Source: Candidatus Velthaea sp.
GTDB lineage: Bacteria > Vulcanimicrobiota > Vulcanimicrobiia > Vulcanimicrobiales > Vulcanimicrobiaceae
Assembly: GCA_050012475.1 (NCBI GenBank)
Contig: JBEKHC010000043.1
Location: forward strand, 1-50,785
DNA: 50,785 bases
Direction: 5' to 3'
The first letter of the stretch is position 1. The number at the start of each line of letters is the position of its first letter. Both the position numbers and the translations under genes were made by a program. The notes under the pieces are model-generated. The model did not search any database. It was not told the DNA's origin and saw only the letters and a program-made list of their open reading frames with translations. Shown piece after piece: positions 3,761-42,564 of the stretch.

Positions 3761-4712
3761 TCAAAGCAAACCCAAACCAGGATGGCCGTCCCAGCGGGTT
3801 GCCCGTTGAACGTATCCGCGAAATATTGGAATACTCTTGTGGCGCGAATGCTGCATCATATCGCGCTCCGATCGGCCTTCACGCGCAGCCGTCGTAATCC
3901 AGCCGGATCGCAGCGAGTGTGCTGCAAACTGCTTAGACTCGAGCTTTACGTCGGGGTTTGCGGCCGCAAAGACATCGATCCTTTAACCAGCGTTGCTACC
4001 AGCGCAGGTTGGATCCGTCCGCGAATATTGCCGTGGCGATCGAGGGCGCGAAATAGAGCGCCTTCCGTGATGCCGGCGAGTTTGATCCACGTTGCGATCG
4101 CGCGCGCTGCGTCGAGGTCTTCGTTTCAGCAAACGGTATCAGGACCGTTTCCAGCAAGCCCTCTTGATTCGTCTTCGATCGCGTCAGCGTCACCGCAACA
4201 CCTACTTCATCATATTCCACATCGTCGACGTTAAGCGAAGCGACCTCGGAGCGCCGGAAGGCACCCGAGAAAGCGAGGAGCATGATCGCGCGATTCCGGG
4301 CGGCGGCGAGACGCTTTGCCTTCGGTTGATTATCTGCCGGCGGCGGTGGGAGCACGTCTAAAAGCAGGTCACGCTTCAACGCCTCTTTGGGTGTTTTCTT
4401 GACACCGCGCTCGCGACGCAATCCCCGCCATATCGTTTGCACGTAAACCGTCGCGACCGGATCGTCAAAGCCCGCGTCTGATGCGCTTTTGCAATCGAGA
4501 TAAGGTGCCGACCAACCGTCGACGTCGCGACACCGCGCTGCCGGCGTTTCCGTTTCACTGATTTCACGACGTCACCGGCTTTTCGTTGGTACTCTTCGTC
4601 GATTTCGGAACGCGAGCGATCGACGAGCCAGCGCAGGTAGCGCGCGACGGTACCGGCGTCGCAGGTAACGGCACAAATCCGCGCGAGAACGCCCAGCCCA
4701 TGAAACTCGCGC
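3761..4712 (-). pseudogene. tyrosine recombinase/integrase (Cre-like), multiply frameshifted and 5'-truncated
   Basis: Pieces in different frames: FMGWAFSRGFVPLP / TVARYL...STVGRHLISIAKAH / RNRAIMLLAFSGAFRRSEV...RSKTNQEG / ARAIATWIKLAGITEGALFR / FAAHSLRSGWIT...HSRHKS...GY, stop at 3761; shifts near 4665, 4475, 4125, 3980. Confidence 0.85.
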
Positions 4713-5681
4713 GACGGCCCCGACGACCTCGCTGCCCAGACCCCACAGCACGAACGTTTCACGATTCGTGATGTGATTGACCAACCAGCCGAAATTCTGG
4801 CCGAAGAAGCCGGTGATGAACGTCAACGGCAGGAAGACGGTGGCGACGATCGTGAGTTGTTTCGCGACCTCGTTTTGGCGATGGGATGCCAGCGAAATGT
4901 GCGTCTCGCGGGCGTTATTGACGGCTTCACGCGCTCCATCGAGTTGATCGACCACGCGTGAAACGTGATCCAGGACGTCGCGGTAGTACGGCAGTTCATC
5001 TGTCCCGAACAATTGCAGATCGCCGCGCAGAATCGGCGCGAGAATGTCGCGAACCGGGACGACCGCGCGCCGGAAACGGGCCAGCTCTTTTTTCATCTCG
5101 TAGATCTCGAGCAGCACGGCGCTAGTCCGCCGCGGGTCGCCGAGCAGCGCCGACTCGAGCCGTCCGACATGTTCCTCGAACGCTTCGGCGATCGCCGTGT
5201 AGCCGTCGACGACCGTGTCGAGGATGGTGTACAGCAACGCACCGCTATCGCGGCGCAGCCCCGCCGGGAGGACTTGCCAGCGGCGCTCGACTTCGTCGAG
5301 CGGGTACGGCGGCCGCCCGCGGGCCGTCACGATGAATTTCGCGCCGGCGAAAATAGAAACTTCATGAATGCGCAGCTCGTCGCCCTCGCGCGTCGCGCCC
5401 TGAACGACGACGAACCACGACTCGTCATACGCTTCGATCTTCGGCTGCTCGTGTGCTTTGAGCGCATCTTCGATGGCCAGCGGGTGCAGTCCGAATTCTT
5501 CTTGGAACAGGGTGAAATCGTGCGGCTGGGGGTCGACCACGTCGAGCCAGACGAACACGCCCGGTTCGCTGAGCACCTCGCTGATATCGGCCAGGCTCGT
5601 CAGCGGACGCGCCTGCGCCGTGTCGTCGTAGACCAAGCAGCGTGCCCCATTGGCCGGCACAGCGTCTTTCATCGCGGGCAT
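4572..5681 (-). CDS. corA: CorA-family Mg2+/Co2+ transporter, 3' end disrupted (reads into integrase remnant after ~4712)
   Basis: FGLHPLAIEDA, LTIVATVFLPLTFITGFFGQNF signature; second TM segment runs into an Arg-rich non-homologous tail. Confidence 0.85.
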   Translation of the reverse strand: MPAMKDAVPANGARCLVYDDTAQARPLTSLADISEVLSEPGVFVWLDVVDPQPHDFTLFQEEFGLHPLAIEDALKAHEQPKIEAYDESWFVVVQGATREGDELRIHEVSIFAGAKFIVTARGRPPYPLDEVERRWQVLPAGLRRDSGALLYTILDTVVDGYTAIAEAFEEHVGRLESALLGDPRRTSAVLLEIYEMKKELARFRRAVVPVRDILAPILRGDLQLFGTDELPYYRDVLDHVSRVVDQLDGAREAVNNARETHISLASHRQNEVAKQLTIVATVFLPLTFITGFFGQNFGWLVNHITNRETFVLWGLGSEVVGAVARVSWAGRSRADLCRYLRRRYRRALPALARRSLAFRNRRRVPTKSR

Positions 5682-5819
5682 GGTTAGGCACGGTTCGGAC
5701 GAACGCCGCTTGCCCGCGACAGTTTGGGACGCTGCAAGGACGGCAGCCGGTTACCATGACTCCATCATCAGTCTCGACCTCGAGCCGGCCGCGTGCGCGC
5801 GGCCAGGGAGCGCAGTCCA

Positions 5820-7106
5820 ATGAGCCTCGTCGAACGAGTCAAAAACATCACCTTTCGCCCGAATGCCGAGTGGCCGGTCATCGCCGGCGAGCCGTCGTCG
5901 CTGGGCGGCTTGTATACCGGCTACGTGGCGCCGCTTGCCGCGATCAACCCGATTGCCCTGTTCATCGGACTCTCGATCATCGGCGTGAGCATCCCGTTCA
6001 TGGGCACGTACCGGGCGCCGTTTTTCTCCGGCATCAGCCAAGCCGTCTTGTCCTTCGTCATGGTGCTCGTCGGGCTGCTGCTCATGGCCGCGATCGTCAA
6101 TGCCCTCGCCCCGACCTTCGGCGGCCGGAAAAATCTCAACGCGGCGTTCAAGCTCGTCGCGTATTCGGCGACCCCGGGCTTTGTCGCCGGCGTCCTGAGC
6201 CTCTTTCCGCCGCTGGCGATGCTCGAGCTGCTGGCCGCGCTGTGGGGGCTGTACCTCTTCTACGTCGGGATTCCGGTGGTAATGCAAACGACGCGAGACA
6301 AAGCGCTGCCGTACACCGCGCTCAGCATGGTTTGCGCATTCGTGATCGGGTTCGTGCTGAGCATCATGATCGGCACGGTGATGGGCGTCGTGGGCTTCGC
6401 GACCGGCGGTTTCGGTCATCAAGCGGTGGGCGCAGTCGTGCCGGGCGCGGATGAAGCGCAAGCCAAAGCGGTTGCGGCGACGATCATCGGCAACGCGATG
6501 GGCGGCAACGACAGCGACAAACAGCAAGCCGCCAAAATGATCGACGGCGTGGCGCAAGCCGGCAAGGCGGCCGATGCCGCAGCGGCCAGCGGCGATACCG
6601 ATGCGCAAGCCGCGGCCGGCGTCGGCGTGCTCAAGTCGCTGGTCTCCGGCGGAAAGGGCGACGTCAAAACGATCCCGCGTGAAACGCTCAAAACGCTGCT
6701 TCCCGACAGCGTCGCCGGGCTTCCGCGCTCGACGGCCCAGAGCAGCTCGGGGAGCTTCGCCGGCATCGCTGCTTCGGGCGCGTCGGCCGTCTACGGCGAC
6801 GACAAGAGCGGAACCATCGAACTCAGCGTTGGCGACATGGGCAACATGGGCGGCCTCGCGCTGATCGCCAATCTCGGCGCCAACCTCACCTCGACCGACA
6901 GCGATGAGGGGTACACCAAAACCGTCGAGATCGATGGCCGCAAAGTGCACGAGCAGTGGACCGTGGCGGGGAAGAAGAGTGAGGTCTTCGAGATCATCGA
7001 CAATCGGTATGCCGTGAGCGCGAGCGGCTCGGGCGTCGCGATGGATACCACGCTGCAGGCGCTCGGGAGCGTCGACGTCGCGCGCTTCACGCAGCTGCAA
7101 CCGTAG
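5820..7106 (+). CDS. Yip1-family membrane protein with C-terminal soluble domain
   Basis: MSLVERVKNI...P..EW..I start, five hydrophobic segments, AFKLVAYS and LYLFYVGIP motifs. Confidence 0.75.
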   Translation: MSLVERVKNITFRPNAEWPVIAGEPSSLGGLYTGYVAPLAAINPIALFIGLSIIGVSIPFMGTYRAPFFSGISQAVLSFVMVLVGLLLMAAIVNALAPTFGGRKNLNAAFKLVAYSATPGFVAGVLSLFPPLAMLELLAALWGLYLFYVGIPVVMQTTRDKALPYTALSMVCAFVIGFVLSIMIGTVMGVVGFATGGFGHQAVGAVVPGADEAQAKAVAATIIGNAMGGNDSDKQQAAKMIDGVAQAGKAADAAAASGDTDAQAAAGVGVLKSLVSGGKGDVKTIPRETLKTLLPDSVAGLPRSTAQSSSGSFAGIAASGASAVYGDDKSGTIELSVGDMGNMGGLALIANLGANLTSTDSDEGYTKTVEIDGRKVHEQWTVAGKKSEVFEIIDNRYAVSASGSGVAMDTTLQALGSVDVARFTQLQP

Positions 7107-7116: not shown

Positions 7117-7176
7117 GCGGCTTGCGGCGTAGCCGCAAACGCCACGGGTTCGGCGCAATGCGCCGAACCCTGCTGC
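7117..7176. repeat. REP-like palindromic repeat (family A)
   Basis: GCGGCTTGCGGCGTAGCCGCAAACGCCACGGG plus hairpin GGGTTCGGCGCA..TGCGCCGAACCC between convergent genes; related copies at 11630, 43575, 48826. Confidence 0.7.
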
Positions 7177-7571
7177 TAAGCGACTTCGTCGGGCCAGGCG
7201 GCGATGTGGCCCAAGGCGGCCGATTTGAGGACTTTGAGTCCGAGCGTGGCGCATTTCATGCGCGCGGGACTGATGCCGATCCCGACGTTTTCGATCACCG
7301 AGTCGACGGAAAGGTGCGCGACTTCTTCGAGGGTTTGGCCGCGAACGGATTCCAGCAGCATCGACGTTGCGGCGCGCGAGATCGCGCAACCCTTGCCCGA
7401 GAAACTGACGTCGTCGACGCGGCCCTCACCTGTCACGTGAATCTCGACGCGAATCGTGTCTCCGCATAACGGGTTGAGATCCTCCGCCACGGCGCTCGGT
7501 GCTTCGAGGTGGCCGAAGTTGCGCGGGTTGCGGTAGTGATCGAGAATGTACCCTTTGTAGAAATCGTCCAT
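7176..7571 (-). CDS. sufU: SufU-type Fe-S assembly sulfur-transfer protein (duplicate of 43658..44053)
   Basis: MDDFYKGYILDHYRNPRNFG...NPLCGD...GKGCAIS...RMKCA; same length as, and highly similar to, 43658..44053. Confidence 0.9.
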   Translation of the reverse strand: MDDFYKGYILDHYRNPRNFGHLEAPSAVAEDLNPLCGDTIRVEIHVTGEGRVDDVSFSGKGCAISRAATSMLLESVRGQTLEEVAHLSVDSVIENVGIGISPARMKCATLGLKVLKSAALGHIAAWPDEVA

Positions 7572-7700
7572 GGGTGCGAGCCGGGAAACCTCTGCCGCCT
7601 CTGGTTTTGCGGCGATCGGGACGCCGAAATCGGCGTCCGTATGGCATGAGTCGAAAATATTGGGAACGGTGGCGGAAGGTCGCGCGCAGTCCGGGGGCAC
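7572..7700 (-). pseudogene. sufS: decayed 3' remnant of sufS
   Basis: SATVPNIFDSCHTDADFGVPIAAKPEAAEVSRLA aligns ungapped (14/34 identical by eye) with the C-terminus SATARASFYIYNSEEDVDVLIGALEKAARVFRLA of SufS 44063..45313, in the same position relative to sufU. Confidence 0.7.
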
Positions 7701-7706: not shown

Positions 7707-7807
7707 GGGATGCTCTGATTTCGTCCTGGCGAGGAGCATAGCGGCGAAGTTTGCTTGAGCAAATGAGCCGCGTAGCGACGATGTCCAGGGCGAAATCAGA
7801 GCATCCC
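7707..7807. mobile_element. 101-bp MITE-like element (family B), copy 1
   Basis: Terminal inverted repeats GGGATGCTCTGATTTCG(T/C)CCTGG (22/23 match), TA on both flanks. Confidence 0.8.
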
Positions 7808-9174
7808 TAGACGCGGTCGGCCAAGCCTTCGAGCAGTTCGATGAAGTTGGTCACCTTCACCCGATCTTTGCCGCTGGCGCTGCCCAAGCTCTTCTCGTGG
7901 TCGTCGATCGCGAGCCAATCATGCCAGTAGGCGACGCGCACGCTGCGCTCAGCGAGCAGCCGATCGACCGCCGCCAAGTCGGGTTGTACGGCGCGCTCGA
8001 GTTTTGCGGCGTCCTCGAGCAGCGCGCGCGCGGTTTCCATTGCGCAGGCTTTATTCGTGCCGATGACGCCGGAGGGGCCGCGCTTGATCCAGCCGGTCGT
8101 ATACTGTCCGGCTAGCGGCTTGCCGTCGTCGGCAAGCACGCGGCCGGCCGCATTGGGGATCACGTGCGCGCGTGAATCGAACGGAACGCCGGGCAGGGCG
8201 CGGCCCCGGTAGCCGACCGCGCGCAGCACCATCTGCATCGGAATCCGCTCGAACTCACCCGTTCCGACGGCGTTGCCGCGTTCGTCGAGCCGGTTGCGCT
8301 CGATCACCAGCGCTTCGACGGCATCCTTGCCGGCGATCTCGACCGGTGAGGTGAGAAAGCGCAAATGCAGGCGCCGCGGTTTGCCCGTGAGGGGCCGCCC
8401 GGCAAAATCGCGCAAGATCTCCAGGTTGCGCTGGAGTGCCTGCTGCGCGGCGATCTCCGCGGCGCTGGCCGTGTCGAGTTCGATTTCTTTGGGGTCGACG
8501 ATGATATCGGCGTTGTCGAGTTCGCCCAGCTCGCGCAGTTCTTTGGTCGTGAATTTCGCTTGCGCGGGGCCGCGCCGGCCGAAGATGTACACGTCGCCGA
8601 TCTCGCTTTCGGCGAGTTTGTCGAGCACGGGGTGCGGAATATCGGTCGAGCGCAGTTCGTCGACGTGCTTGGCCAGGATGCGCGCCACGTCGACCGCGAC
8701 GTTGCCCACGCCGACAACGGCCGCGGCCTTCGCTCCGGCCGGAAGGTGCACGATTTCGCTATGATCGGGATGGCCGCTGTACCAGGCGACGAACTCGGTG
8801 GCCGACAAACTGCCGGCGAGATCTTCGCCCGGAATGCCCAACCGCCGGTCGTGCGGCGCTCCCACGGCATAGACGATCGCGTCGTAATAACGGCGCGCGT
8901 CGTCCACGGTGAGATCGGTCCCGAAATTGACGTTGCCCAAGAAGCGAACGCGCGGATCTTCGAGCGTCTTGTGAAACGTCGTGATGACCGATTTGATTTT
9001 CGCGTGATCGGGTGCGACGCCGTACCGCACGAGTCCGTAGGGTGTGTGCAGACGCTCGATGACGTCGATGCTGACCGTGTGGTCCTTCGCCTTGAGAAGC
9101 GCGTCGACCAGAAAAAGACCGGCTGGTCCGGCACCGACGACGGCGATACGCAGCGGCAAGGCGGGAGTGCTCAT
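7807..9174 (-). CDS. fprA: ferredoxin--NADP+ reductase, adrenodoxin-reductase/FprA type
   Basis: GAGPAG, PYGLVRYGVAPDH, GVGNVAVDVAR, RRGPAQAKFT, GWIKRGPSGVIGTN motifs. Confidence 0.85.
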   Translation of the reverse strand: MSTPALPLRIAVVGAGPAGLFLVDALLKAKDHTVSIDVIERLHTPYGLVRYGVAPDHAKIKSVITTFHKTLEDPRVRFLGNVNFGTDLTVDDARRYYDAIVYAVGAPHDRRLGIPGEDLAGSLSATEFVAWYSGHPDHSEIVHLPAGAKAAAVVGVGNVAVDVARILAKHVDELRSTDIPHPVLDKLAESEIGDVYIFGRRGPAQAKFTTKELRELGELDNADIIVDPKEIELDTASAAEIAAQQALQRNLEILRDFAGRPLTGKPRRLHLRFLTSPVEIAGKDAVEALVIERNRLDERGNAVGTGEFERIPMQMVLRAVGYRGRALPGVPFDSRAHVIPNAAGRVLADDGKPLAGQYTTGWIKRGPSGVIGTNKACAMETARALLEDAAKLERAVQPDLAAVDRLLAERSVRVAYWHDWLAIDDHEKSLGSASGKDRVKVTNFIELLEGLADRV

Positions 9175-9242: not shown

Positions 9243-9623
9243 TCAGTACTCGCTCAAGGCGTCGTCTCCGCATTCGCGCGTTCGGACGCGCATCGCCTCG
9301 AGCACGGGCAGCACGAAGATCTTGCCGTCGCCCGGGACCCCGGTTTTGTTGGTCCCGATGATGGTCCGGATGGCCGCGTCCAGATCGTCGTCCGAAACCA
9401 CGACGCTGAGCATCCGGCAGGGCAACAGCATCGGTCCCTCGCCGACTTGCACGCGGGGTGCTTCCGCGCGGCTCTCATCGCCCATGTGAACGGCACCGCC
9501 CTTGCCCAAACGGCCGCGGCCGACGATGTTGCGCGCGGTAAAGGCGGAGAAGCCCGCGTCGGCGAGCGCGATGCGGGTTCGATTGGCGCGTTGGTGCCGA
9601 ATGAAGGCGACGATTTGCTTCAT
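9243..9623 (-). CDS. nifI2: PII-family nitrogenase regulator NifI2-like
   Basis: MKQIVAFIR...T..AL..AGF.AFT...GRG..., TNKTGVPGDGKIFVLPV; long T-loop; coupled to nifI1 (ATGA overlap). Confidence 0.8.
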   Translation of the reverse strand: MKQIVAFIRHQRANRTRIALADAGFSAFTARNIVGRGRLGKGGAVHMGDESRAEAPRVQVGEGPMLLPCRMLSVVVSDDDLDAAIRTIIGTNKTGVPGDGKIFVLPVLEAMRVRTRECGDDALSEY

Positions 9624-9961
9624 GCGCGAACGGCTTCGGCGTCGCGTGTCCCGGTGCTGATCGTGTACGAGGCCGCAACGGGAAGAACGAAGATCTTGCC
9701 GTCGCCGAACGCGCCGCCGGCGTCGGTCCGGGCGGCGTGCTCGATCGTGTCGATGACGCGCTGCGCGTCGTCGTCTTCGACGACGATCATCAACATTTCT
9801 TTGGGCAGCTCGTCGTAACTGACTTCACCGATTCGAATACCGCGCTGCTTGCCGCGTCCGGCGACGTCGTATTTGGTCAAGGCCGGGAACCCGGCGTCGA
9901 GCAGTGCTTGAGCGACGGTATATGCTTTCTCGGGACGGACGATCGCTTGAACCATGACCAT
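9620..9961 (-). CDS. nifI1: PII-family nitrogenase regulator NifI1-like
   Basis: AIVRPEK...L.DAGFPALTK.DV.GRGKQRGIRIGEVSYDELPK...GAFGDGKIFV...YTISTG, characteristic of NifI1 (short T-loop); AGAGGT RBS upstream. Confidence 0.9.
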   Translation of the reverse strand: MVMVQAIVRPEKAYTVAQALLDAGFPALTKYDVAGRGKQRGIRIGEVSYDELPKEMLMIVVEDDDAQRVIDTIEHAARTDAGGAFGDGKIFVLPVAASYTISTGTRDAEAVRA

Positions 9962-10028
9962 GGCCGGTGGGGCACCTCTCGCAAACGGATTCGCGCCATC
10001 GTATCGCACGAACGATGGTATCGGTTAC

Positions 10029-10181: not shown

Positions 10182-10613
10182 CTAGGGGTGCTGCTCTTCG
10201 GCGTCGTGCGGGTTGCCGGGAAGGTTGCGCATCCAGTTCGCCATGTGCGCGAGCTCGGCGAGGACCTTGGAACGCGCTTCGGGATGTGCCACCGAATCTT
10301 CGAGCGCGCATCGCATGCAGTGCACCCAAGCGTCACGCTCGGCCTCGCCGATCGCGAAGCCGATATGGCGGCTGCGCAGTCGCGGAGGGCCTTTCTTCGC
10401 GGAATAGAGTTTCGGGCCGCCCAGCCACTCGCCGAGGTATTCCTTGAGCACTGCTTTGATCGTTCCGAGTTCGCGCGTGTGCATCGCCCGGATCGTCCGG
10501 GCTTCGGGAAACGTGTTCATTCGGGCGTAAAAAGCTTCCACCAATCGATCGACGCCGGCCGCTCCGCCGATGAAATCGAACAAAGAAACCTCACCCATCG
10601 TCGCTTCAATCAT
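10182..10613 (-). CDS. glbO: group II truncated (2/2) hemoglobin
   Basis: FDFIGG...RLVEAFY, WLGGPKLY, PRLRSRH..F.IG..ERDAW. Confidence 0.9.
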   Translation of the reverse strand: MIEATMGEVSLFDFIGGAAGVDRLVEAFYARMNTFPEARTIRAMHTRELGTIKAVLKEYLGEWLGGPKLYSAKKGPPRLRSRHIGFAIGEAERDAWVHCMRCALEDSVAHPEARSKVLAELAHMANWMRNLPGNPHDAEEQHP

Positions 10614-10824: not shown

Positions 10825-11019
10825 ATGGCCTACAAGATCATTGCTTCTCAGTGCACGGTTTGCGGCGCTTGCGAATTCGATTGCCCAAATGCTGCTATTT
10901 CGCTCAAGCGCGGAATGTACACGATCAATCCCAAGCTGTGCACCGAATGCGAGGGTCATTTCGACTCGCCGCAATGTGCGACGCTCTGCCCCGTCGATAA
11001 CACCTGCGTTCCCGCCTGA
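10825..11019 (+). CDS. fdxN: 2x[4Fe-4S] ferredoxin, FdxN-like
   Basis: CxxCxxCxxxCP and CxxC-x8-CxxxCP; AGGAGG RBS. Confidence 0.9.
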
Positions 11020-11182
11020 GCGAAGCGGCCGCGCGAATCCCGCGCTGACCGATTGTTCCGTGCCGTTCGTCCGGCTTGCGAGGCAAACGACAATGAGCGC
11101 TCGTTCGTCCGACTTTGCGGACGATCTGTTCGGGCGGTTTCGCCAAAGCCGAAACGCGGCGCACGGCGCGTACGTCTGTTCA

Positions 11183-11573
11183 TTAGAGAATCCGGAGCGG
11201 GGAAAAGCCGGGGTCCCGCCCGAGCACGGTATTTACGGCCCGGCGGACCGATTCGACGGTGAGCGGTTTGGCGGCAGTCGCGGACGTCGTCCGTGCACTC
11301 GGCCACGAGCAGCACCCTCGTCTGAGGAATTTCGCGGGCGATCTCGTCGAACACACCAGCACCGTGTTCGCGCACGACCGCTGAGCCGAGCACGATGAGA
11401 TCGACTTTTCGTCCGGCGGATTTCGCGATCGCTTCGGCGACGGTAGCGATCTCATGCGTTTCATTCTCGTCATGCAGCATGAACTGGATGGCCGCGCGCG
11501 TTATCTCGTCGCTGTCGATCACGAAGATGCGTTTGTTTTCCAGGGCGCGCGAAATCTCAACTCCGATCTGCAT
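11183..11573 (-). pseudogene. nif-associated single-domain response-regulator-like protein, frameshifted by small deletion
   Basis: Receiver-like N-part (KRIFVIDSDEITR...VDLIVL...RVLLVAE) in one frame; KPLTVESVRRAVNTVLG C-terminus in another frame ending 11183; break ~11285. Confidence 0.7.
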
Positions 11574-16426: not shown

Positions 16427-17995
16427 TTATGCGGCGGTAAAGGCGCCCTGGCGTAGATCGGCATCGCCGCGTTCGATGTGCTCGAGTTCGCCGCGCTGCA
16501 CCTTATCGAGGTAGTGGCGGAACCACGAGATGGCCGACTGCTCGATGAACTCGAGCGCGTATTCGTCGACGGGATCGATGCCGGCCGCCTGCAGCGTGTC
16601 TTTGGGGCAGCCGCCGATCTTGGCGACGAACACGGCGTGGCAGTCGTTGATCGCGCGCACGATCGTGGCGAGACTATCTTCTTCGCCGAAGCCGCCTTGG
16701 CAGTACAGATCGACGCGCCGGTGGCCGACGAACTTCGCGCCCGCCGTACTCAGTTCGTAGACCTGAAATTCTTTGGCGTGGCCGAAGTGCTCGTTGATCC
16801 GGCCGCTGCCCTTGGTGGCGACGGCGATGAGGACCTTGATATCGCTCATCTCGCCGGCGAGCGTTTCAAGTTCGGCTTGCCGAGCCGCAACCTTCGCTTC
16901 GCGTTCGTCTTCCACTTTGAGCTGATATGCCTTGCGCGTTTGGGAGTCGTACTCGACGTCCATCGCCATGATCTTCTCGGTGCTGAATTCAGCGCTGCGA
17001 TCTTCGCCCAACAGACCCACGGCGTCCGCCCGGCATTGCCGGCAGTGACGCATCATGTTCATCTCGCCCTCGCAACTGTCTTGCAGCGCCTTGAGCTCTT
17101 GAGCCGAAGGGCCGCGTTGACCGGTCAATCCAAAGACGGTTCCGTGCTCGGGCGCCGAGATCAACGGCATGATGTTGTGAAGGAATGCGCCGCGGGATTT
17201 CACCGCTCGATTTACCTCGACCAGATGCTGGTCGTTGACGCCGGGAATCATGACCGAGTTGACTTTGCAGAGAATGCCCCGCTCCGTCAGCATCTCCAGC
17301 CCCAGCAGCTGCCGTTCGCTCAGGATCCGGGCGGCCTCCACACCCGTGTAGCGCTTGTGCTTGAAGAAGATCCAAGGGTAGATCTTGGCGCCGATCTCCG
17401 GATCGACCATGTTGATGGTGATCGTGACGTGATCGACGTTGAAGGCTTTGATCGTATCGACGTGATCGGGGAGCATTAGGCCATTTGTCGACAGGCACAG
17501 CTTGATGTCCGGCGCAGTCCTGGCAATAAGCTCGAAGGTTTTGAAGGTCTTCTCGGGATTCGCGAGCGGGTCGCCCGGACCGGCGATGCCGAGCACCGTC
17601 ATCTGCGGGATCGTGGAGGCCACGGCGAGGACTTTCTTCGCGGCCTGTTCGGGCGTCAGCTTCTCGCTCACGACACCGGGGCGTGATTCGTTGGCGCAGT
17701 CGTACTTGCGGTTACAGTAGTTACATTGAATGTTGCAGGCTGGGGCAACCGCGACGTGCATGCGGGCATAGTGATGATGCGCTTCTTCGCTGTAGCACGG
17801 GTGGTTCTTGACCTTTTCCCAAATCTCGGGAGCAAGATCGTTCGCGCCGGCGCCCGAACCGCAACTAGATTTCCCGCTGGCGCCCTTGGTGCCGCAACCT
17901 TTTTGCTCGGCGACTTTCTGCATCATTTGATCCGGCGTTGGGATCGCGTTCAGACGAACTTCTGAGAAGTTCGATAGTCCGATCAACTCTTGCAT
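16427..17995 (-). CDS. nifB: FeMo-cofactor biosynthesis radical SAM protein NifB with C-terminal NifX-like domain
   Basis: [30 protein letters not shown] motifs; GAGGAG RBS before ATG 17995. Confidence 0.97.
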
Positions 17996-18036
17996 GCTCG
18001 CTCCTCGTCTTTCATCCATACTGACATTAGCGGAAA

Positions 18037-18052
18037 TGCAAGCCACGGGCCA
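18037..18052 (-). promoter_or_regulatory. sigma54-type -24/-12 promoter candidate for nifB operon
   Basis: TGGCCCGTGGCTTGCA on minus strand, close to TGGCACG-N4-TTGCW. Confidence 0.6.
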
Positions 18053-18472: not shown

Positions 18473-19384
<912 letters not shown>

Positions 19385-19399
19385 CTTGCGTGCCGAGGG

Positions 19400-19439
19400 C
19401 CGTTCCGCCGCCGCCTTTTGACGGCGAACTCCGGAACGG
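19400..19439 (+). other. nifH-nifD intergenic stem-loop
   Basis: CCGTTCCG...CGGAACGG with inner stem; possible mRNA stability/processing element. Confidence 0.45.
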
Positions 19440-19473
19440 TCCGATGCGCTTCTTTTATTAGGATAGGAACGTC

Positions 19474-20976
19474 ATGAGTCTCACGACTGAGGATAGCACC
19501 GAAGACCTCAAAGCTCGCAATCAAGCCCTCATCGCTGAGGTCTTGGAAGTCTATCCGGCGGCCACGGCCAAAAGACGCGCCAAGCATCTAGGAACATTCG
19601 AAGAAGGCAAACCGGATTGCGGCGTCAAGTCGAACATCAAGTCGATCCCCGGCGTGATGACGATCCGCGGCTGTGCGTACGCCGGGTCGAAGGGCGTGGT
19701 TTGGGGCCCGATCAAGGACATGGTTCACATCAGCCACGGCCCGGTCGGCTGCGGCCAATATTCATGGGGATCGCGCCGGAACTATTATATCGGCACGACC
19801 GGCGTGGACACGTTCGTGACGATGCAGTTCACCTCCGATTTCCAGGAAAAAGACATCGTCTTCGGCGGTGACAAAAAACTCGCCAAGATCATGGATGAGA
19901 TTGAGGAGCTCTTTCCGCTCAATAAAGGCATCACCGTTCAATCCGAGTGTCCGATTGGGCTCATCGGCGACGACATCGAGGCCGTTTCCAAGGCCAAGGC
20001 CAAACAGTTCGGCAAGACGATCGTCCCGGTCCGCTGCGAGGGCTTCCGCGGCGTGTCGCAGTCGCTCGGACACCATATCGCCAATGACGCCGTTCGCGAC
20101 TGGGTATTCGATAAGCTCACCGGCAAACCGGTGCGCTTCGAGAGCACGCCCTACGACGTTGCGATCATCGGGGACTACAACATCGGCGGCGACGCCTGGT
20201 CCTCGCGCATCCTGCTCGAAGAGATGGGCTTGCGTGTGATCGCGCAGTGGTCGGGCGACGGCAGCCTAGCCGAACTCGAGGCGACGCCCAAGGCCAAGCT
20301 CAACGTGCTGCACTGCTATCGCTCGATGAACTACATTTCGCGCCACATGGAAGAGAAGTACGGCGTCCCGTGGGTCGAGTACAATTTCTTCGGCCCCACC
20401 AAGATCGAGGAATCGCTGCGCAAAATCGCCGCTCACTTCGACGACAAGATCAAGGCCGGCGCGGAAGAAGTGATCGCCAAGTACAAGGCGCTCACGGCCA
20501 AAACGATCGAGAAATATCGCCCGCGTCTGGCGGGCAAGAAGGTCATGCTCTTCGTCGGCGGTCTCCGTCCGCGGCACGTCATCGGCGCCTATGAAGATCT
20601 GGGCATGGAAGTGGTCGGTACGGGTTATGAATTCGGCCACAACGACGACTACCAGCGGACGACGCATTACGTCAAAGACGGAACGCTGATTTACGACGAT
20701 GTGACCGGCTACGAGTTCGAGAAGTTCGTCGAAAAGGTTCAGCCCGACTTGGTCGGTTCGGGCATCAAAGAGAAGTACGTCTTTCAGAAGATGGGCGTGC
20801 CGTTCCGGCAGATGCACTCTTGGGATTACTCGGGTCCGTACCACGGCTACGACGGCTTCCCGATCTTCGCCCGCGATATGGACATGGCAATCAACTCCCC
20901 CATTTGGAAGTTGGCAAAGGCGCCGTGGAAGCAGCAGCCGGCCGCGTCCACCCCTTCATCCGAGTCAGCTGCTTGA
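19474..20976 (+). CDS. nifD: nitrogenase MoFe protein alpha chain
   Basis: [37 protein letters not shown]. Confidence 0.99.
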
Positions 20977-20980
20977 TCTA

Positions 20981-21084
20981 GGGATGCTCCCAATTCACCC
21001 TGGACGTCATCGCTGCGCGGCTCATTTGCTGAAGCAAACTTCGCCGCTATACGCCTCGCCGGGACGAAATGGGAGCATCATCCC
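20981..21084. mobile_element. MITE-like element (family B), copy 2, opposite orientation
   Basis: Reverse complement of 7707..7807 core (GCGGCTCATTTGCT..AGCAAACTTCGCCGCTA), GGGATGCTC end. Confidence 0.75.
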
Positions 21085-21105
21085 TCGAGGATCGACTTCG
21101 TCGAT

Positions 21106-21185
21106 CCGTCGCGTTCGGGCTTCGCCCGAGCCGCCCGTCACGCTCTCGCCAAGCCGCCCGTCGCGTTCGGCTTCGCCCAGCCCCC
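21106..21185. repeat. tandem hairpin repeat (family C), ~3 units
   Basis: CCGTCGCGTTCGGGCTTCGCCCGAGCCG plus two degenerate units. Confidence 0.75.
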
Positions 21186-21212
21186 CGTCTTAACGTTTAG
21201 AGGAGTTCTTCA

Positions 21213-22772
21213 ATGAGCCAAGATGCCGAGCACGTCATCGATCATGTCGACTTATTCCGCGGTGCGGAATACCAGGAGATGTTCGAGAAGAAACGGGCAA
21301 ACTTCGAGAACCCGGCTGCGGACGATGAACTGGCGCGCGTTCGGGAGTGGACCAAGACCGACGAGTATCGCGAAAAGAACTTCGCCCGCACGTCGCTCAC
21401 GGTCAATCCGGCGAAAGCCTGTCAACCGCTCGGAGCAGTGTTTGCGGCCGTCGGTTTCGAGAGCACGCTTCCGTTCGTGCACGGCTCGCAAGGTTGCGTC
21501 GCCTATTATCGGAGCCATTTCTCGCGGCACTTCAAGGAACCGACGTCGTGCGTTTCGTCGTCGATGACGGAGGACGCGGCCGTTTTCGGCGGCATGAAAA
21601 ACATGATCGAAGGGCTTGCGAACTCGTACAACATGTACAAGCCCAAGATGATTTCGGTTTCGACCACCTGTATGGCGGAGGTGATCGGCGACGATCTCAG
21701 CTCGTTCATCAAGAACGCGAAGGAAAAGGGATCGGTCCCCGAAGAGTTCGACGTTCCGTTCGCCCATACGCCGGCGTTTGTCGGCAGCCACATCACCGGT
21801 TACGACAATGTGCTCAAGGGAATTCTCGAGCATTTCTGGGCCGGTAAGGCAAGAACGGTCGCGAAACTCGAGCGCGTGGCCAACGATAAGATCAATTTCA
21901 TCGGCGGCTTCGACGGGTACACCGTCGGCAATCTACGTGAAATAAAGCGCATCTTCGGTTTGATGGGCGTGGATTTCACGATCATCTCGGATAACAGCGA
22001 CGTGTGGGACACGCCGACCGACGGGCAATTCCGCATGTATGACGGTGGCACGACCCTCGAAGATACGGCCGACGCGATCCACGCCAAGGCAACGATCTCG
22101 ATGCAAGAGTTCTGTACGGAAAAGACGCTGGCATTCGTCGCCGGCCAGGGTCAGGAAGTCGTTTCGTTCAACCACCCCATGGGTCTGGCGGGCACCGACA
22201 AGTTCCTTATGGAAGTCGCGCGGATCACCGGCAAAGAGATCCCGGACGAGCTGGCCAAAGAGCGCGGCCGTCTGGCCGACGCGATCGCCGATTCGAACTC
22301 GCACTTGCACGGGAAGAAGTTTGCCATCTACGGCGATCCCGACCTGTGCCTCGGTCTGGCCGGCTTTCTCATGGAACTTGGCGCCGAGCCGGTGCACATT
22401 CTTTCGACCAATGGCGGCAATACGTGGGTGGAGCGGATGCAAGCGCTGCTCGACAGCTCGCCGTTCGGAAAGAACTGCCACATCTATCCGGGCAAGGATC
22501 TCTGGCACATGCGCTCGCTCCTGTTTACCGAACCGGTCGATTTCCTGATCGGCAATACGTACGGCAAATATTTGGAGCGCGATACCGGCACGCCGTTGAT
22601 CCGCATCGGCTTCCCGATCTTCGATCGGCATCATCACCATCGCTATCCGGTGTGGGGCTATCAAGGCGCTCTCAACGTCCTCGTACAGCTGCTCGACAAA
22701 GTCTTCGACGAGATCGATCGCAACACGAACGTCGCCTCGAAAACCGACTACAGCTTCGACATCATCCGCTGA
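21213..22772 (+). CDS. nifK: nitrogenase MoFe protein beta chain
   Basis: [28 protein letters not shown]-terminal FDIIR; long Group I N-terminus. Confidence 0.99.
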
Positions 22773-22799: not shown

Positions 22800-24200
22800 A
22801 TGAGCACCCTGTCCAGCAAGATCCAGGAAGTCTTCAACGAGCCGGGGTGCGAGATCAACGCGGCGAAGTCCGGCAAGGCGCGCAAGAAGGGCTGTACCAA
22901 GCAACTTGCACCGGGCGCGGCGGCCGGCGGCTGCGCCTTCGACGGCGCGAAGATCGCGCTGCAGCCAATCACCGACGTCGCTCATTTGGTGCACGGGCCG
23001 ATTGCCTGCGAAGGGAATTCCTGGGATAACCGCGGGACGAAATCCTCGGGCCCGCAGCTGTACCGGACGAGCTTCACCACCGACATCAACGAGAACGACG
23101 TGGTGTTTGGGGGCGAAAAGCGGCTCTACAAAGCGATCAAAGAGATCGTCGAGAAATACGATCCGCCGGCGGTGTTCGTCTACCAAACGTGCGTGCCGGC
23201 GATGATCGGCGACGATCTGGGCGCCGTTTGTAAGGCGGCCAGCGAGAAGTTCGGCAAGCCCGTCATCCCCGTGATGTCGCCGGGCTTCGTCGGACCGAAA
23301 AACCTTGGCAATAAGCTCGCGGGCGAAGCGCTTCTCGATCACGTGATCGGAACCGAGGAGCCCGACTACACGACACCCTACGACCTCAACATCATCGGCG
23401 AATACAACCTCTCGGGCGAGTTATGGCAGGTGAAGCCGCTCCTGGATGAGATGGGCGTACGCATTCTGTCGTGCATTTCGGGCGATGCCCGCTATCACGA
23501 AGTTGCCCGCTCGCACCGCGCCCGGGCCGCGATGATGGTGTGTTCCAAGGCCATGATCAACATCGCTCGCAAGATGGAAGAGCGCTACGCGATTCCGTTT
23601 TTCGAGGGTTCGTTCTACGGGATCGGCGACACGAGTGATTCGCTGCGGCAAATCGCCAAACTGCTCGTCGGGCGCGGTGCGCCGGCAGAACTGATCGAGC
23701 GTACGGAATCGATTATCCGGCGGGAAGAAGCACGTGCCTGGCAAGAGCTCGAGCCCTACAAGGCGGCACTCGCGGGCAAACGCGTGCTGCTGATCACCGG
23801 CGGTGTGAAGTCGTGGTCCGTTGTAGCGGCGCTCCAGGCGGTTGGGCTCGAGATCGTCGGCACGAGCGTGAAGAAGTCGACCCAAGAAGATAAGGAGCGG
23901 ATCAAAGAGATCATGGGCGGCGACGCTCATATGATCGACGACATGACGCCGCGTGAAATGTATAAGATGCTCAAGGAAGCGCGTGCCGACATCATGTTGT
24001 CCGGCGGACGGTCGCAATTCGTCGCGCTCAAAGCGAAGATGCCGTGGCTGGACATCAACCAAGAGCGCCATCATGCCTACGCCGGGTATGCGGGCATGAC
24101 TGCCTTGGTCCGCGAGATCGAGAAAGCATTGCATAATCCGATCTGGGAGCACGTGCGCAAGCCGGCGCCTTGGGCGCTGCCTTTGGTTTCGGTGGCTTGA
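22800..24200 (+). CDS. nifE: FeMo-co scaffold NifE
   Basis: [27 protein letters not shown]. Confidence 0.97.
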
Positions 24201-24208
24201 CGATTCCC

Positions 24209-25582
24209 ATGGCCACGGTTGTCACCTCCCGCAAAGCCTGCACGGTCAATCCGCTCAAGATGAGCCAGCCCATCGGCGGTGCGCTCGCGTTCATGGGCAT
24301 TCGCGGCTGCATGCCGCTGCTGCACGGATCGCAGGGCTGCACGTCGTTCGGGCTCGTGCTCTTCGTGCGCCATTTCCGCGAGTCGATTCCGCTGCAAACG
24401 ACGGCGATGAGCGAAGTGGCAACGGTGCTCGGCGGATTCGACAACGTCGAAGCGGCGATCGTCAATATCGCCAAACGCACGAAACCGGAGATCATCGGGA
24501 TTTGCTCGACCGGCGTGACCGAAGTGAAGGGCGACGACGTCGACGCGTTCATCCGGGTGATCCGCGCGAATCATCCGGAGTTGGCGCACATCGGTCTCGT
24601 GTACGTCTCGACGCCGGATTTCAAGGGAGCCTTTCAGGACGGCTGGTCGCGGGCCGTCGTGCAACTGGTCGAGCAGCTCGTCGAGCCGGTGCCCGAAGGA
24701 CACCGGATGCTGCGCAACCCGCGGCAAATCAACGTGTTGCCCGGCAGCCATCTGACGCCGGGGGATCTTGAAGAGCTGCGCGAGATCATCGAGGCGTTCG
24801 GGCTCGAGCCGCTTTTCTTACCCGATCTTTCCGGTTCGCTCGACGGGCACATCCCCGAGGACTTCACGCCAACGACGTTGGGTGGTATCAGCCTCGCCCA
24901 GATTGCGCGCTTGGGTTCGTCGGCACACACGATCGCCGTCGGCGAACAGATGCGAGCCGCGGCGGTCGCGATGGAAGTGCGGACCGGCGTGCCGTTCACG
25001 CTCTTCGACCGGCTGACGGGACTTGCGCCCAACGACGATCTGATCGCCCTGTTGGCGAGCCTGGGCGGCCAATCCGTCCCGGCCAAATATCGGCGCCAGC
25101 GCAGCCAGTTGGTCGACGCCATGCTCGACGGACATTTTCACTTCGGCGGCAAGAAGATTGCGATCGGTGCCGAGCCGGATTTGTTATGGAGCATGTCGGC
25201 CTTTCTCACCGAGATGGGCAGTCAGATCACCGCCGCCGTAACGACGACGGCCTCACCTTTGCTCGCGCAGATGGAGACGGGCGAGGTGCTCATCGGAGAC
25301 CTCGAAGATCTCGAGTGCCGGTCAGCCGGCTGCGACCTGCTGATCACGCACTCTCACGGCCGGCAGGCCGCGCAGCGGCTCAACATCCCGTTGTATCGGT
25401 TGGGTTTCCCGATGTTCGATCGGCTGGGGGCGGGGCACCGGCTTTCGGTCGGCTATCGCGGCACGCGAGATTTGATCTTCGAGATCGGCAACGTCTTCGT
25501 GGCGGAGTCGCATGAGGTTACTCCCGATACCTGGCGCCGCAGCGAGGAAACCGCCGTGGAATCCGCCGTCCCGCTTTCCTAG
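24209..25582 (+). CDS. nifN: FeMo-co scaffold NifN
   Basis: NPLKMSQPIG, HGSQGC, RHFRE.IPLQTTAM, GFPMFDRLG. Confidence 0.97.
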   Translation: MATVVTSRKACTVNPLKMSQPIGGALAFMGIRGCMPLLHGSQGCTSFGLVLFVRHFRESIPLQTTAMSEVATVLGGFDNVEAAIVNIAKRTKPEIIGICSTGVTEVKGDDVDAFIRVIRANHPELAHIGLVYVSTPDFKGAFQDGWSRAVVQLVEQLVEPVPEGHRMLRNPRQINVLPGSHLTPGDLEELREIIEAFGLEPLFLPDLSGSLDGHIPEDFTPTTLGGISLAQIARLGSSAHTIAVGEQMRAAAVAMEVRTGVPFTLFDRLTGLAPNDDLIALLASLGGQSVPAKYRRQRSQLVDAMLDGHFHFGGKKIAIGAEPDLLWSMSAFLTEMGSQITAAVTTTASPLLAQMETGEVLIGDLEDLECRSAGCDLLITHSHGRQAAQRLNIPLYRLGFPMFDRLGAGHRLSVGYRGTRDLIFEIGNVFVAESHEVTPDTWRRSEETAVESAVPLS

Positions 25583-25607
25583 GACTCGTTCTGCTCACGG
25601 AGTTGAT

Positions 25608-26021
25608 ATGAAGATTGCATTCGCCACCCAAGACCACAAACACGTCGACGCCCATTTCGGCTGGGCAAAAAACATCGCGATCTACGAGGTCTCGCCGAAC
25701 GGTCATCGGTTCGTGCACGAGGTTGCCTTTGATGGCGATCTGCAAGAAGACGGGAGCGAAGATAAGCTCACCCCGAAACTCGACGCGATCAAAGACTGCG
25801 CGATCTTGTACGTTGCCGCCATCGGCGGCTCCGGCGCGGCACGCGTCGTGGCGAGCAAAATCCACCCGATCAAGGTCAACGAGCCCGAAGCGATCGACAC
25901 CATCTTGGACAAACTTCAGGTCGTCCTCGCGGGTACACCGCCGCCTTGGCTGCGCAAGGCAATGCTCAAGGACGCGCCTCGTAACGTTTCGTACGAGGAT
26001 GAAGTGGTGACGCATGCTTGA
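25608..26021 (+). CDS. nifX: NifX
   Basis: MKIAFAT.D...VDAHFG.A, AIGGS.AA, PPPWLRK. Confidence 0.95.
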
Positions 26022-26496
26022 AACGGCAGCCGCCGCCAGCACTGCGACCGCCCCGATCCCCTTGATGGAAAATGCGTTCGTGAAAGAGCTCGTCCGGCAG
26101 TGGCGCGCTCAGGACGCGCATGGGGCGTGGGAAGGCAAAACCGACCTCGACCTGCTCGAGCCGTACATCATCGACAAGGAAATGCGGCGCCAGCTGCCGA
26201 TCATCGGCGATCCGGACCCCGAGACGCTGTGGCGTTTGGAACTCTTCTATAACGCCGTCGGGCTGGTCATCGAACGCCAGACGGAAATCATGGTTTCGCC
26301 GATGATGAAGATTCATCACGAGGGATTCGGCCGGCTCGTGCTGACCGCGGGCCGCCTGATCGTCCTCAACAAACAGCTGCGCGACGTGCACCGCTTTGGC
26401 TTCGACAGCCTCGAAAAACTGGCCCGCGAAGGCGACAAGCTGGTGGCCGCGGCGGTCGAGATGATCGAGAAATTCCCCGAAGTCGCTAATTACTAG
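26014..26496 (+). CDS. NifX-associated protein (DUF269)
   Basis: [30 protein letters not shown]. Confidence 0.9.
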
Positions 26497-26512
26497 CCAC
26501 GAGAGAGAGCAG

Positions 26513-26734
26513 ATGTCCGACACCGACGCCCTGAAATTGGAGATCCGAAAGCTGTCCGCTCAGGCGATGCAGGCCAAGATGGATTTGCACGATCTCTCCG
26601 AGGAGCTGCCAATCGGCTGGCCGCAGATTCTGAGCGTCGCGCAGCGCGCTCACGACGCTTTCAAGCTGCTCGAGAGCAAGCGCGAGCTACTGAAGGCCCA
26701 GTCGGAACTCGTCTCCACTGAGTCGGGAGGCTGA
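26513..26734 (+). CDS. CCE_0567/Rop-like nif-associated protein
   Basis: KMDLHDLSEELP..W. Confidence 0.85.
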   Translation: MSDTDALKLEIRKLSAQAMQAKMDLHDLSEELPIGWPQILSVAQRAHDAFKLLESKRELLKAQSELVSTESGG

Positions 26735-26742
26735 GACCGAGC

Positions 26743-27039
26743 GTGGCAATCGTAGCAAGAGAATCCATGACGCGCGATGGGCGCGAGTGGCAGCCGCACT
26801 ATTTGGTCGCGATCGACGGCGCCGTGTGTATTGGGTGCGGCCGCTGTTACAAGGTCTGCGGGCGCGAGGTCATGACGCTCAAGGGCATCAACGAGGACGG
26901 CGACCTGGTCGAACTCGACGATGATGAAGACGACGAGATCGAGCGCAAGGTCATGGTCATGGCGGACGCCGGCGCCTGCATCGGCTGCGCCGCGTGCTCG
27001 CGCGTCTGCCCCACCGATTGCCAAACCCACGCGGCCTAG
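26743..27039 (+). CDS. fdxB: nif-specific ferredoxin III
   Basis: TRDG..W.P, CIGCGRCYKVC, acidic loop, CIGC.AC.RVCP. Confidence 0.92.
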   Translation: MAIVARESMTRDGREWQPHYLVAIDGAVCIGCGRCYKVCGREVMTLKGINEDGDLVELDDDEDDEIERKVMVMADAGACIGCAACSRVCPTDCQTHAA

Positions 27040-27047
27040 GCTGACAC

Positions 27048-27929: not shown

Positions 27930-28250
27930 ATGATTCACCTCACGCAGAGTGCTGCCGACGCCGTTCGTTCAGCGATGGCGGGCGCCGCGGAGCCGATGGA
28001 CGGCCTGCGCATCGTCGTTGAAGCCGGCGGCTGTGCCGGGTTCAAGTATATGATGGGACTGGTGCCGCAACCGGCGCCGGGTGACGTGCAGTTGGAGGAT
28101 CGCGGTATCAAAGTCTTCATCGATCCGGCGAGCCTCCCGTCGATCGAGGGAACGACGATCGACTTCGTGATGACCCTCCAAGAGTCGGGGTTCAGCTTCA
28201 AAAATCCGCAGGCGACCGAGAGTTGCAGCTGCGGCAAATCGTTCGGATAA
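27930..28250 (+). CDS. iscA: IscA/HesB Fe-S carrier (nif-type)
   Basis: GGCAG.KY.M...GF.F.NP....CSCGKSF; AAGGAG RBS. Confidence 0.92.
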   Translation: MIHLTQSAADAVRSAMAGAAEPMDGLRIVVEAGGCAGFKYMMGLVPQPAPGDVQLEDRGIKVFIDPASLPSIEGTTIDFVMTLQESGFSFKNPQATESCSCGKSFG

Positions 28251-28256
28251 CGGCCG

Positions 28257-29702: not shown

Positions 29703-29704
29703 CG

Positions 29705-30477
<773 letters not shown>

Positions 30478-30481
<4 letters not shown>

Positions 30482-38517: not shown

Positions 38518-38525
38518 GAGCTGCG

Positions 38526-41463: not shown

Positions 41464-41501
41464 CGCAGCATCAACGTTCGGCCGCCCCGCGAGGCAACCG
41501 T

Positions 41502-42437: not shown

Positions 42438-42564
42438 TTTCATCACCGAATACTTTTGATTACCGAGACATTCGCACACAACGATCGCGACGGCGACGAC
42501 CATTGCGGAGGAGCCCATCGCTTACGTTCTTTCCCTCTTTGCGCGCGATGATAGGTGCACAGAC

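Follow-up and report, generated by a model that had tools for sequence, protein, structure and literature searches.

How does a NifI1/NifI2 pair, described as the brake of anaerobe-type nitrogenases, come to stand beside a nitrogenase of proteobacterial type, and could it still act there? This question is raised by contig JBEKHC010000043.1 of Candidatus Velthaea sp. (family Vulcanimicrobiaceae; assembly GCA_050012475.1), here called the window and analysed over its whole length of 50,785 nt. It makes up one complete contig of the metagenome-assembled genome (MAG; 5.36 Mb in 204 contigs) of an Eremiobacterota soil bacterium, and all searches of the assembly reported below refer to a genome that is 93.8% complete with 5.3% contamination. 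Current accounts, in their available parts, hold that this brake was lost as nitrogen fixation entered aerobes, and the available text of PMC12903952 reports that nifI1/I2 are negatively correlated with aerobe-associated nif genes and lost with aerobic life. Our analyses indicate that the NifI pair of the window is native to the host family and the nitrogenase imported, and that brake and aerobe-type enzyme, although of separate ancestry, travel as one block in at least two genera. The pair and its immediate neighbours are as follows.

9620..9961, minus strand: nifI1, 113 aa from the ATG at 9961, with the open reading frame (ORF) open up to a GTG at 10009
9243..9623, minus strand: nifI2, 126 aa, ATG start, overlapping the nifI1 stop by 4 nt (ATGA)
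9441..9512, minus strand: codons of the NifI2 T-loop extension (residues 38-61), a hypervariable stretch in the window's lineage
7807..9174, minus strand: fprA-type NADPH-ferredoxin reductase gene, following nifI2 on this strand after 68 nt
10182..10613, minus strand: group II truncated haemoglobin gene (Pfam Bac_globin, 114 bits), first gene of the Group I-type neighbourhood

The ORF list contained 9243..9623 (minus strand, 126 aa, ATG) and 9620..10009 (minus strand, GTG), the latter with an internal ATG at 9961 that is preceded by a Shine-Dalgarno-like GAGAGG stretch. The shorter nifI1 comes first and the longer nifI2 second, adjacent and co-oriented, with the stop/start overlap at 9620-9623. 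Membership of both proteins in the Pfam P-II family (PF00543; cut-off 25) was far beyond chance (NifI1, 86.4 bits, E = 1.8e-24; NifI2, 62.3 bits, E = 5.9e-17), and the NCBIfam GlnB/GlnK equivalog models were not reached (39-56 bits against cut-offs of 181 and 202). The top solved-structure match of NifI1 was chain 9p1x_H (105 aa; 92.9 bits, runner-up 75.5) and that of NifI2 was chain 9p1x_G (125 aa; 73.9 bits, runner-up 65.1); NifI2 residues 1-124 aligned end to end with residues 1-121 of the latter, keeping the length of the extended T-loop. 9P1X is the NifDK-NifI1,2 supercomplex of Methanosarcina acetivorans, and it contains the 105-aa chain 12 times and the 125-aa chain 6 times, in agreement with the 2:1 NifI1:NifI2 heterotrimer reported for that complex.

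In a tree of 16 gene pairs, methanogens included, the window proteins fell on opposite sides of the NifI1/NifI2 split (100/98 support) and both stood apart from the other PII-like proteins of the family (100/100). The NifI trees held no bona fide GlnB/GlnK outgroup, since the family's other PF00543 hits are a different PII-like group, so that the comparison with GlnB/GlnK rests on bit scores. Those other hits form a separate small group that does not carry the B-loop GDGK motif; the motif is present in both window proteins. ATGA coupling was seen in 11 of the 17 pairs examined, the 11 being all members of the Eremiobacterota-type clade. Judged by solved-structure match, tree and the gene context of relatives, the pair is thus a genuine nifI1 and nifI2. 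An earlier note on this DNA, made from its letters alone, had proposed two coupled NifI1/NifI2-type PII genes; the 9P1X matches, the clade placement and the ATGA overlap bear this out, and the alternative it named, grouping with a non-NifI clade, is answered by placement in the NifI1 and NifI2 clades. It also placed the pair at the left edge of the island, where it indeed sits, between fprA and the truncated-globin gene.

The nitrogenase itself is, by family models, structure ranking and alignment, a proteobacterial-type Group I Mo-nitrogenase. NifD scored 874 bits on the nifD equivalog model (cut-off 653.55) and NifK 862 on its own (cut-off 427.3), and against solved structures NifD scored 799-885 bits with Group I chains compared to 398 with the Clostridium and 484 with the methanogen protein. 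In a search that covered plasmid records only, NifD was 82-87.5% identical to the enzymes of Methylococcus (87.5%), Bradyrhizobium (84%), Paraburkholderia (~83%) and Cupriavidus. The alignment showed that the window NifD is without the ~50-residue alpha-loop insertion carried by the canonical NifD of relatives and that NifK has an N-terminal extension, both of which are on the list of Group I markers given in the available part of the M. acetivorans structural preprint. The truncated-globin and response-regulator receiver genes have homologues on a Methylococcus plasmid, ahead of nifH and likewise in this order; the response regulator next to nifH there is 41% identical to the window's receiver. 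The Group I-type neighbourhood therefore starts directly behind nifI1. The earlier assignment to a proteobacterial-type Group I enzyme is thus upheld by the NifD/NifK models, the structure ranking and the plasmid identities.

Only one NifD was found in the whole assembly, with no second nifDK, so that the anaerobe-type nifDK to which the note thought the pair might otherwise belong is absent from it. Searching the assembly by tblastn with the anaerobe-type Nif proteins of a canonical cluster from the same family (L013) returned only this contig, besides two distant NifH-like and two NifV-like genes. The NifH-like genes (G000, C88:9810-10457 and C54:27570-28355) are 42% and 36% identical to canonical NifH; our guess is that they encode BchL/BchX-type subunits, which would fit phototrophic Eremiobacterota.

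The NifI pair pointed to a different source. Its closest NifI2 relatives in named genomes were Eremiobacterota MAGs, together with one MAG labelled Alphaproteobacteria. All 8 of the closest genome loci (L011-L018) have the canonical order nifH-nifI1-nifI2-nifD, and their NifD proteins are 37-39% identical to that of the window with the alpha-loop present. Three of these canonical-cluster genomes (L011, L012 and L013) belong, by genome grouping, to the window genome's own family, and their NifI1 and NifI2 are 63-75% and 49-63% identical to the window's, respectively. L011 and L012 (loci of genomes G059 and G014) have the order nifK-nifE-nifN-nifB-(nifV)-nifH-nifI1-nifI2-nifD, with nifD apart from nifK, and L013 has the usual H-I1-I2-D-K-E-N-B-V order. 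Among 23 metagenome loci (L064-L086), 18 were canonical, 4 had the string nifI1-nifI2-fprA (one identical to the window, plus L065, L066 and L067) and 1 had neither. NifI2 occurred in 5/100 other genomes of the family and NifD in the same 5; NifD was present in 5/400 other genomes of the phylum and 0/3 of the genus. The NifI pair is thus tied to nif in the host family.

FprA of the window matched the Mycobacterium tuberculosis-type FprA 1lqt with 376 bits over residues 7-449, and fprA also stands beside the canonical clusters of L012 (82% identical) and L013 (67%), on the opposite strand. Since NifI and FprA resemble the genes of canonical clusters in same-family genomes, the pair descends from the anaerobe-type nifH-nifI1-nifI2-nifDK clusters of the host's Eremiobacterota family, making NifI (and FprA) the native part and the Group I nitrogenase the import. 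The earlier proposal of a chimeric system stands as far as the different origins of NifI and NifDK are concerned; its direction, in which NifI came from another source, is reversed.

The pair and fprA form the left end of a block of ~36 kb, in the order nifI1, nifI2, fprA on one strand, ~8.5 kb from nifH rather than between nifH and nifD, and all else in the block belongs to a nif/suf/fix set of proteobacterial Group I type. The remaining features and flanks of the block are listed below.

4572..7106: corA (minus strand) and yip1 (plus strand), left flank of the block, ~74% identical in the nif-less congener G076 and there adjoining sufU
7176..7700, minus strand: extra sufU/NifU_N-like copy, left end of the block; homologous part ~7176-7571, a direct repeat of native sufU
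10825..11019, plus strand: YfhL-type 2x[4Fe-4S] ferredoxin gene, 87.5% identical in genome G094
10956..11573, minus strand: orphan response-regulator receiver (Pfam Response_reg with 24.4 bits, short of the 30.2 cut-off); its listed ORF shares positions with the ferredoxin gene
16427..18046, minus strand: nifB (TIGR01290, 688.7 bits)
18485..22772, plus strand: nifH, nifD and nifK, Group I of proteobacterial type (family models, structure ranking, plasmid identities, alignment)
22800..27728, plus strand: nifE, nifN, nifX, NifX-associated gene and nifQ
27930..36196, plus strand: iscA, sufB, sufC, sufD, sufS and sufU (island copies), nifS and nifV
36527..40065, plus strand: fixABCX
40558..43233, plus strand: ORFs of Fer2-rubrerythrin and rubrerythrin-like type, with a second copy of sufR behind them; these form the right end of the block, which G094 shares
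43658..47518, minus strand: native sufC-sufD-sufS-sufU operon, right flank of the block, collinear with G076

The same detached layout was found in G094, a 97% complete genome of another genus, which has the string fprA, nifI2, nifI1, ferredoxin, receiver, SIR2-like gene, then nifB, nifHDKENX, suf, nifSV and fixABCX, and ends like the window's block in rubrerythrin-like genes and sufR. NifH and NifD of the two blocks are 97% and 92% identical, and the flanks are unrelated. The metagenome contig L066 likewise joins the Group I nifB side to nifI1-nifI2-fprA, and fprA adjoins the NifI pair in every detached copy (window, L065, L066/L067 and G094). In L066, nifI1 is directly preceded, in the same orientation, by two bacteriophytochrome genes (4797-9271; PAS_2-GAF-PHY and PAS_2-GAF-PHY-GGDEF-EAL), which take the place of most of the truncated-globin gene.

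The congener G076 (contig C46) presents the empty site, an uninterrupted corA-yip1-sufU-sufS-sufD-sufC. In the window, ~36 kb reaching from the extra sufU copy to the extra sufR copy are inserted between yip1 and the suf operon, so that NifI, fprA and nif occur or are missing together, as a single block. The insert is flanked by diverged direct repeats; those of sufU (7117-7571 vs 43606-44053; 79.8% nucleotide identity) and of the sufR region (42546-43187 vs 47597-48239; 81.7%) suggest that the block was integrated or lost via homology with suf genes. Replacement of a canonical cluster in situ, with the pair as the remnant of a local deletion, was considered and dropped, because the empty site puts the pair inside the indel block and the detached layout requires an inversion relative to L012 and L013.

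The block does not have one history throughout. A NifI tree built without the T-loop columns placed the window, L065 and L066 as sister to the canonical L011 and L012 (100/99), and G094 with L013, likewise canonical (86/89). A common origin of the four detached copies, as one clade, was rejected (approximately unbiased test, AU p = 0.005), the four-copy group having been formed after the identity tables had been seen. By RpoB identity, the nearest partner of the window's genome is G059 (91%) and G014 goes with G094 (89%), the G080 row of that table being left out as derived from a wrong ORF; the window FprA is 83% identical to that of G059, 82% to that of G014 and 65% to that of G094. Taken together with the tree, these identities indicate that the left-end module tracks local ancestry and that the Group I part is shared between genera. 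The mosaic may have arisen by repeated capture or by recombination between blocks. Between the window and G094, dS was 0.5-1.4 for all genes and near saturation, which allows neither a breakpoint nor a clock for the age of the mosaic to be read.

Three side observations concern the block at large. At 40558-41996, one ORF joins a 2Fe-2S ferredoxin domain to a rubrerythrin-like part, and another rubrerythrin-like ORF comes after it. The Fer2 domain shares 57% identity with a small 2Fe-2S protein encoded after nifK on the Methylococcus plasmid, and these ORFs may serve in oxygen protection. ORF 14182-14766 (plus strand) had no family match and gave an omega of 0.6-1.0 at low dS against G094 and L066, and its listed frame is probably not the real gene. 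GC content was even across the window (57-67%).

We further investigated other regulators of nitrogen fixation. As the earlier note had stated, none of nifA, nifL, draT and draG was among the annotated genes of the window. At the level of the whole assembly, the NifA model gave at best 57.6 bits (cut-off 528.85), rpoN had no match and DraG reached 65.7 bits at best (cut-off 337), which is the outcome of the genome search proposed for nifA, rpoN and DraG; a DraT search likewise gave no match, with the control genomes equally silent. The -24/-12 pattern of sigma-54 promoters was no commoner than chance (4 matches vs 3.4 expected). The sole other PF00543 match in the assembly was not GlnB-like. 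Among 100 other genomes of the family, rpoN exceeded the cut-off in none, with sub-cut-off matches in 4, and PF00543 was found in 12. Because the family is mostly without sigma-54 and PII, the missing NifA/sigma-54 and GlnB/K are lineage traits. The host is not a proteobacterium, so that the absence of NifA, which the note set against alpha/betaproteobacterial clusters, reflects its lineage.

The nifB-nifH intergenic region (18047-18484) holds several blocks of 16-25 nt that are identical or nearly so between the window and G094, and these may be an operator or leader element in place of NifA/sigma-54 control. The sequences ahead of nifI1 in the window, L065 and L066 contain none of these blocks and do not align with each other. 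Scans of 7000-11200 found no sigma-70-like promoter sites and seven terminator sites (4.6 expected), none between nifI2 and fprA; both scans were uninformative.

NifI1 (omega 0.08-0.14) and the body of NifI2 (0.18-0.28 outside the T-loop) are under purifying selection within the window's NifI lineage, and the NifI1 T-loop is 96.7% identical among three detached copies of lineage A. We consider it quite possible, though short of probable, that the pair is a still-functional 2-oxoglutarate/ATP-gated nitrogenase brake at the Fe-protein docking face, working without the NifI2 clamp. We infer that the window proteins would still form a 2:1 NifI1/NifI2 heterotrimer sensing ATP/ADP and 2-oxoglutarate. 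When fixed nitrogen is ample, this heterotrimer would damp nitrogenase by occupying the conserved face of NifDK at which the Fe protein docks, the contact now being made via the trimer body and the invariant NifI1 T-loops. The imported enzyme would in this way gain a post-translational brake in a host in whose assembly NifA/sigma-54, DraT and GlnB/GlnK were not found. According to the available parts of the two structural preprints, on M. infernus and M. acetivorans, NifI1,2 and NifH share one NifDK site, whose recognition is described as highly conserved. The wider proposal, that the NifI switch has been re-coupled to a crown proteobacterial Group I enzyme and acts without the clamp either on the enzyme or on an FprA-dependent electron supply, seems to us doubtful. 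If true, PII-based sequestration would be portable between nitrogenase groups and the NifI2 clamp dispensable once the NifD alpha-loop is gone.

A number of observations weigh against a brake of this kind, most of them concerning the NifI2 T-loop. This loop evolves almost neutrally in the window's lineage and has lost its constraint: for residues 38-61, pN was 0.61 and pS 0.72 between the window and L065, compared to a pN of 0.04-0.21 in canonical pairs. Ten NifI2 sequences of lineage-A type, the gene context of which is known for 2, had a mean pairwise identity of 34% in the T-loop and 82% in the rest, and 12 NifI2 with the canonical motif showed the reverse pattern (78% and 71%). L066 and L067 have 19 T-loop residues deleted in frame. 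The conserved canonical T-loop sequence is not kept in the window's lineage; the T-loop of G094 is near-canonical. In the available part of the M. infernus preprint the NifI2 T-loop makes most of the NifDK contact, and in that of the M. acetivorans preprint it binds the NifD alpha-loop insertion. Read together with these preprints, the T-loop would have decayed because the imported NifD is without the alpha-loop that it contacts in M. acetivorans, and its near-neutral evolution speaks against retention of the ancestral binding mode. A readapted interface should be conserved again, yet the T-loop is not. The omega values are themselves approximate, as the underlying dS of 0.6-1.0 is near saturation, and the assembly has the incompleteness and contamination given above.

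Evidence of expression comes with reservations. Three RNA libraries of one study yielded contigs that map to fprA, nifI2 and nifI1, and two of these contigs, both without differences, span the nifI2-fprA gap (601 nt) and the nifI1/nifI2 overlap (238 nt); the libraries may hold DNA, and a contig over two genes is no proof of a single transcript. Parts of nifH, nifD and nifK have such contigs as well, and none was seen on stretches such as 13112-14764 and 15316-17519, both covered by a DNA run; this pattern is evidence neither of silence nor of true transcription.

The same loss of constraint in the NifI2 T-loop, next to a conserved NifI1 and a new NifD without the alpha-loop, would also be seen if the heterotrimer had left NifDK and now controlled FprA, as electron supply, or another regulator through the conserved NifI1 T-loops. 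The nifI1-nifI2-fprA string in all detached copies and the RNA-library contig that bridges nifI2 and fprA agree with such retargeting. However, fprA already stands beside the canonical nif clusters of L012 and L013, 6 genomes of the family that carry neither nif nor NifI have an fprA orthologue (at least 64% identity; one of these genomes is unpublished and supports no claim made here), NifI was confined to the nif-bearing genomes in the family sample, and NifI2 has gained no new conserved loop motif. A complex prediction of two NifI1, one NifI2 and FprA scored 0.23 against a mark of 0.32, in runs without controls, and speaks neither for nor against binding; overall we regard retargeting as rather unlikely. 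The T-loop decay and the in-frame deletion in L066/L067 could instead mark the pair as a decaying remnant of a replaced anaerobe-type cluster, transcribed only through its position upstream of fprA, in line with the reported loss of nifI1I2 on the move to aerobic nitrogen fixation in the literature available to us. A remnant is nevertheless hard to reconcile with reading frames that are intact in every copy seen, an omega of 0.08-0.28 outside the T-loop, the retained ATGA coupling, the near-identical NifI1 T-loops and the keeping of the pair in two NifI lineages, both with the Group I block, and we think it quite unlikely.

That the genes encode generic GlnB/GlnK-type PII proteins lying near nif by chance is largely refuted. 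The NCBIfam GlnB/GlnK models gave the only named matches, and Foldseek with the predicted NifI2 model (mean pLDDT 78; core >90; residues 40-62 <50) retrieved PII structures at E = 1e-11 with generic GlnK/PII structures ranking first, which also counts against our preferred reading to the extent that a fold search cannot separate NifI from GlnK. Those model scores are, however, far under their cut-offs, the top sequence matches are the NifI chains of 9P1X, the proteins are nested (100/99) among pairs located between nifH and nifD, and neither amtB nor glnA neighbours the pair. An assembly or binning artefact joining Eremiobacterota DNA to a proteobacterial nif contig might be suspected from a MAG of 204 contigs, with its contamination and its proteobacterial-like nif genes. 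It is scarcely credible given that the same junction occurs in G094 and L066, that both flanks are collinear with one G076 contig, that a 3438-nt contig from a DNA run, possibly of the source sample, spans fprA to the response-regulator gene, and that GC content is even. The brake without the clamp accordingly stays our preferred, if tentative, reading.

Searches of full-text literature (subscription-only papers and supplements being outside their scope) turned up no account of a NifI pair next to a Group I nitrogenase of proteobacterial type in Eremiobacterota, nor any description of NifI2 T-loop decay. The locus amounts to a natural swap experiment on whether an anaerobe off-switch works on the other enzyme type and, with the 2025 structures at hand, it carries a readable molecular signature: an enzyme that no longer has the alpha-loop, next to a NifI2 whose corresponding T-loop has been freed from selection. 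With this locus the Eremiobacterota gain a second nitrogenase type, and it documents how nif genes of proteobacterial origin work where the phylum has no NifA/sigma-54. Whether NifI can inhibit a Group I MoFe protein is now a directly testable practical question, and both structural preprints, in their available parts, raise NifI as an engineering handle.

Compared with the NifI of methanogens (Methanococcus maripaludis, M. acetivorans 9P1X and the M. infernus crystal structure), the window has the same adjacent pairing of nifI1 then nifI2, the same PII fold, the longer NifI2 with an extended T-loop and the GDGK B-loops, with 9P1X as best match. It differs in that the pair is not between nifH and nifD, the partner is a Group I NifDK without alpha-loop, the NifI2 T-loop sequence is not conserved in its lineage, and the host is a bacterium with fixABCX and truncated-globin genes. 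The canonical clusters of Eremiobacterota (Ca. Lamibacter sapmiensis, PMC11180709, in its available text; L011-L013) are from the same phylum, L011-L013 from the same family, and share the ATGA coupling and, in L012 and L013, a nearby fprA. They combine Cluster III/anaerobe-type NifHDK, the alpha-loop and a conserved T-loop motif, whereas the window has proteobacterial-type structural genes; NifI with a Cluster III nifH in Eremiobacterota was already in print there.

NifI pairs at cluster edges are also on record, in Aquificales, Thermodesulfovibrio, Desulfuromonas and Heliobacterium (PMC11773926 and PMC12780486, as far as available). The earlier statement that nifI1/I2 usually lie between nifH and nifD is right as to the usual position; other positions, including those of microaerobic Aquificales, had been published. 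In Aquificales (Hydrogenobacter, Thermocrinis, Pampinifervens), the pair is at the cluster edge of microaerobic hosts and, as in Thermodesulfovibrio and Desulfuromonas with their nifHDKENXI1I2B order, likewise outside the nifH-nifD gap. In all of these it lies inside one cluster for which the available parts of the papers suggest no separate origin, whereas the window's NifI is of separate ancestry. According to the same sources Aquificales clusters carry nifA, and the window's nitrogenase differs from theirs in being 82-87.5% identical to alpha-, beta- and gammaproteobacterial enzymes.

For the enzyme, the plasmid of Methylococcus sp. EFPC2 offers the comparison, with NifH 88%, NifD 87.5%, NifK 79% and NifE 83% identical to the window's and with response-regulator and truncated-globin genes upstream of nifH in the same order. 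Relative to such proteobacterial Group I regulons (Methylococcus, and the symbiosis plasmids of Bradyrhizobium and Paraburkholderia), the window is without nifA and rpoN and with a NifI pair. GlnB/GlnK together with DraT/DraG provide another PII-based post-translational control of nitrogenase that responds to 2-oxoglutarate. Unlike in that switch-off system, and with DraG below its cut-off, the PII proteins of the window are of the NifI type.

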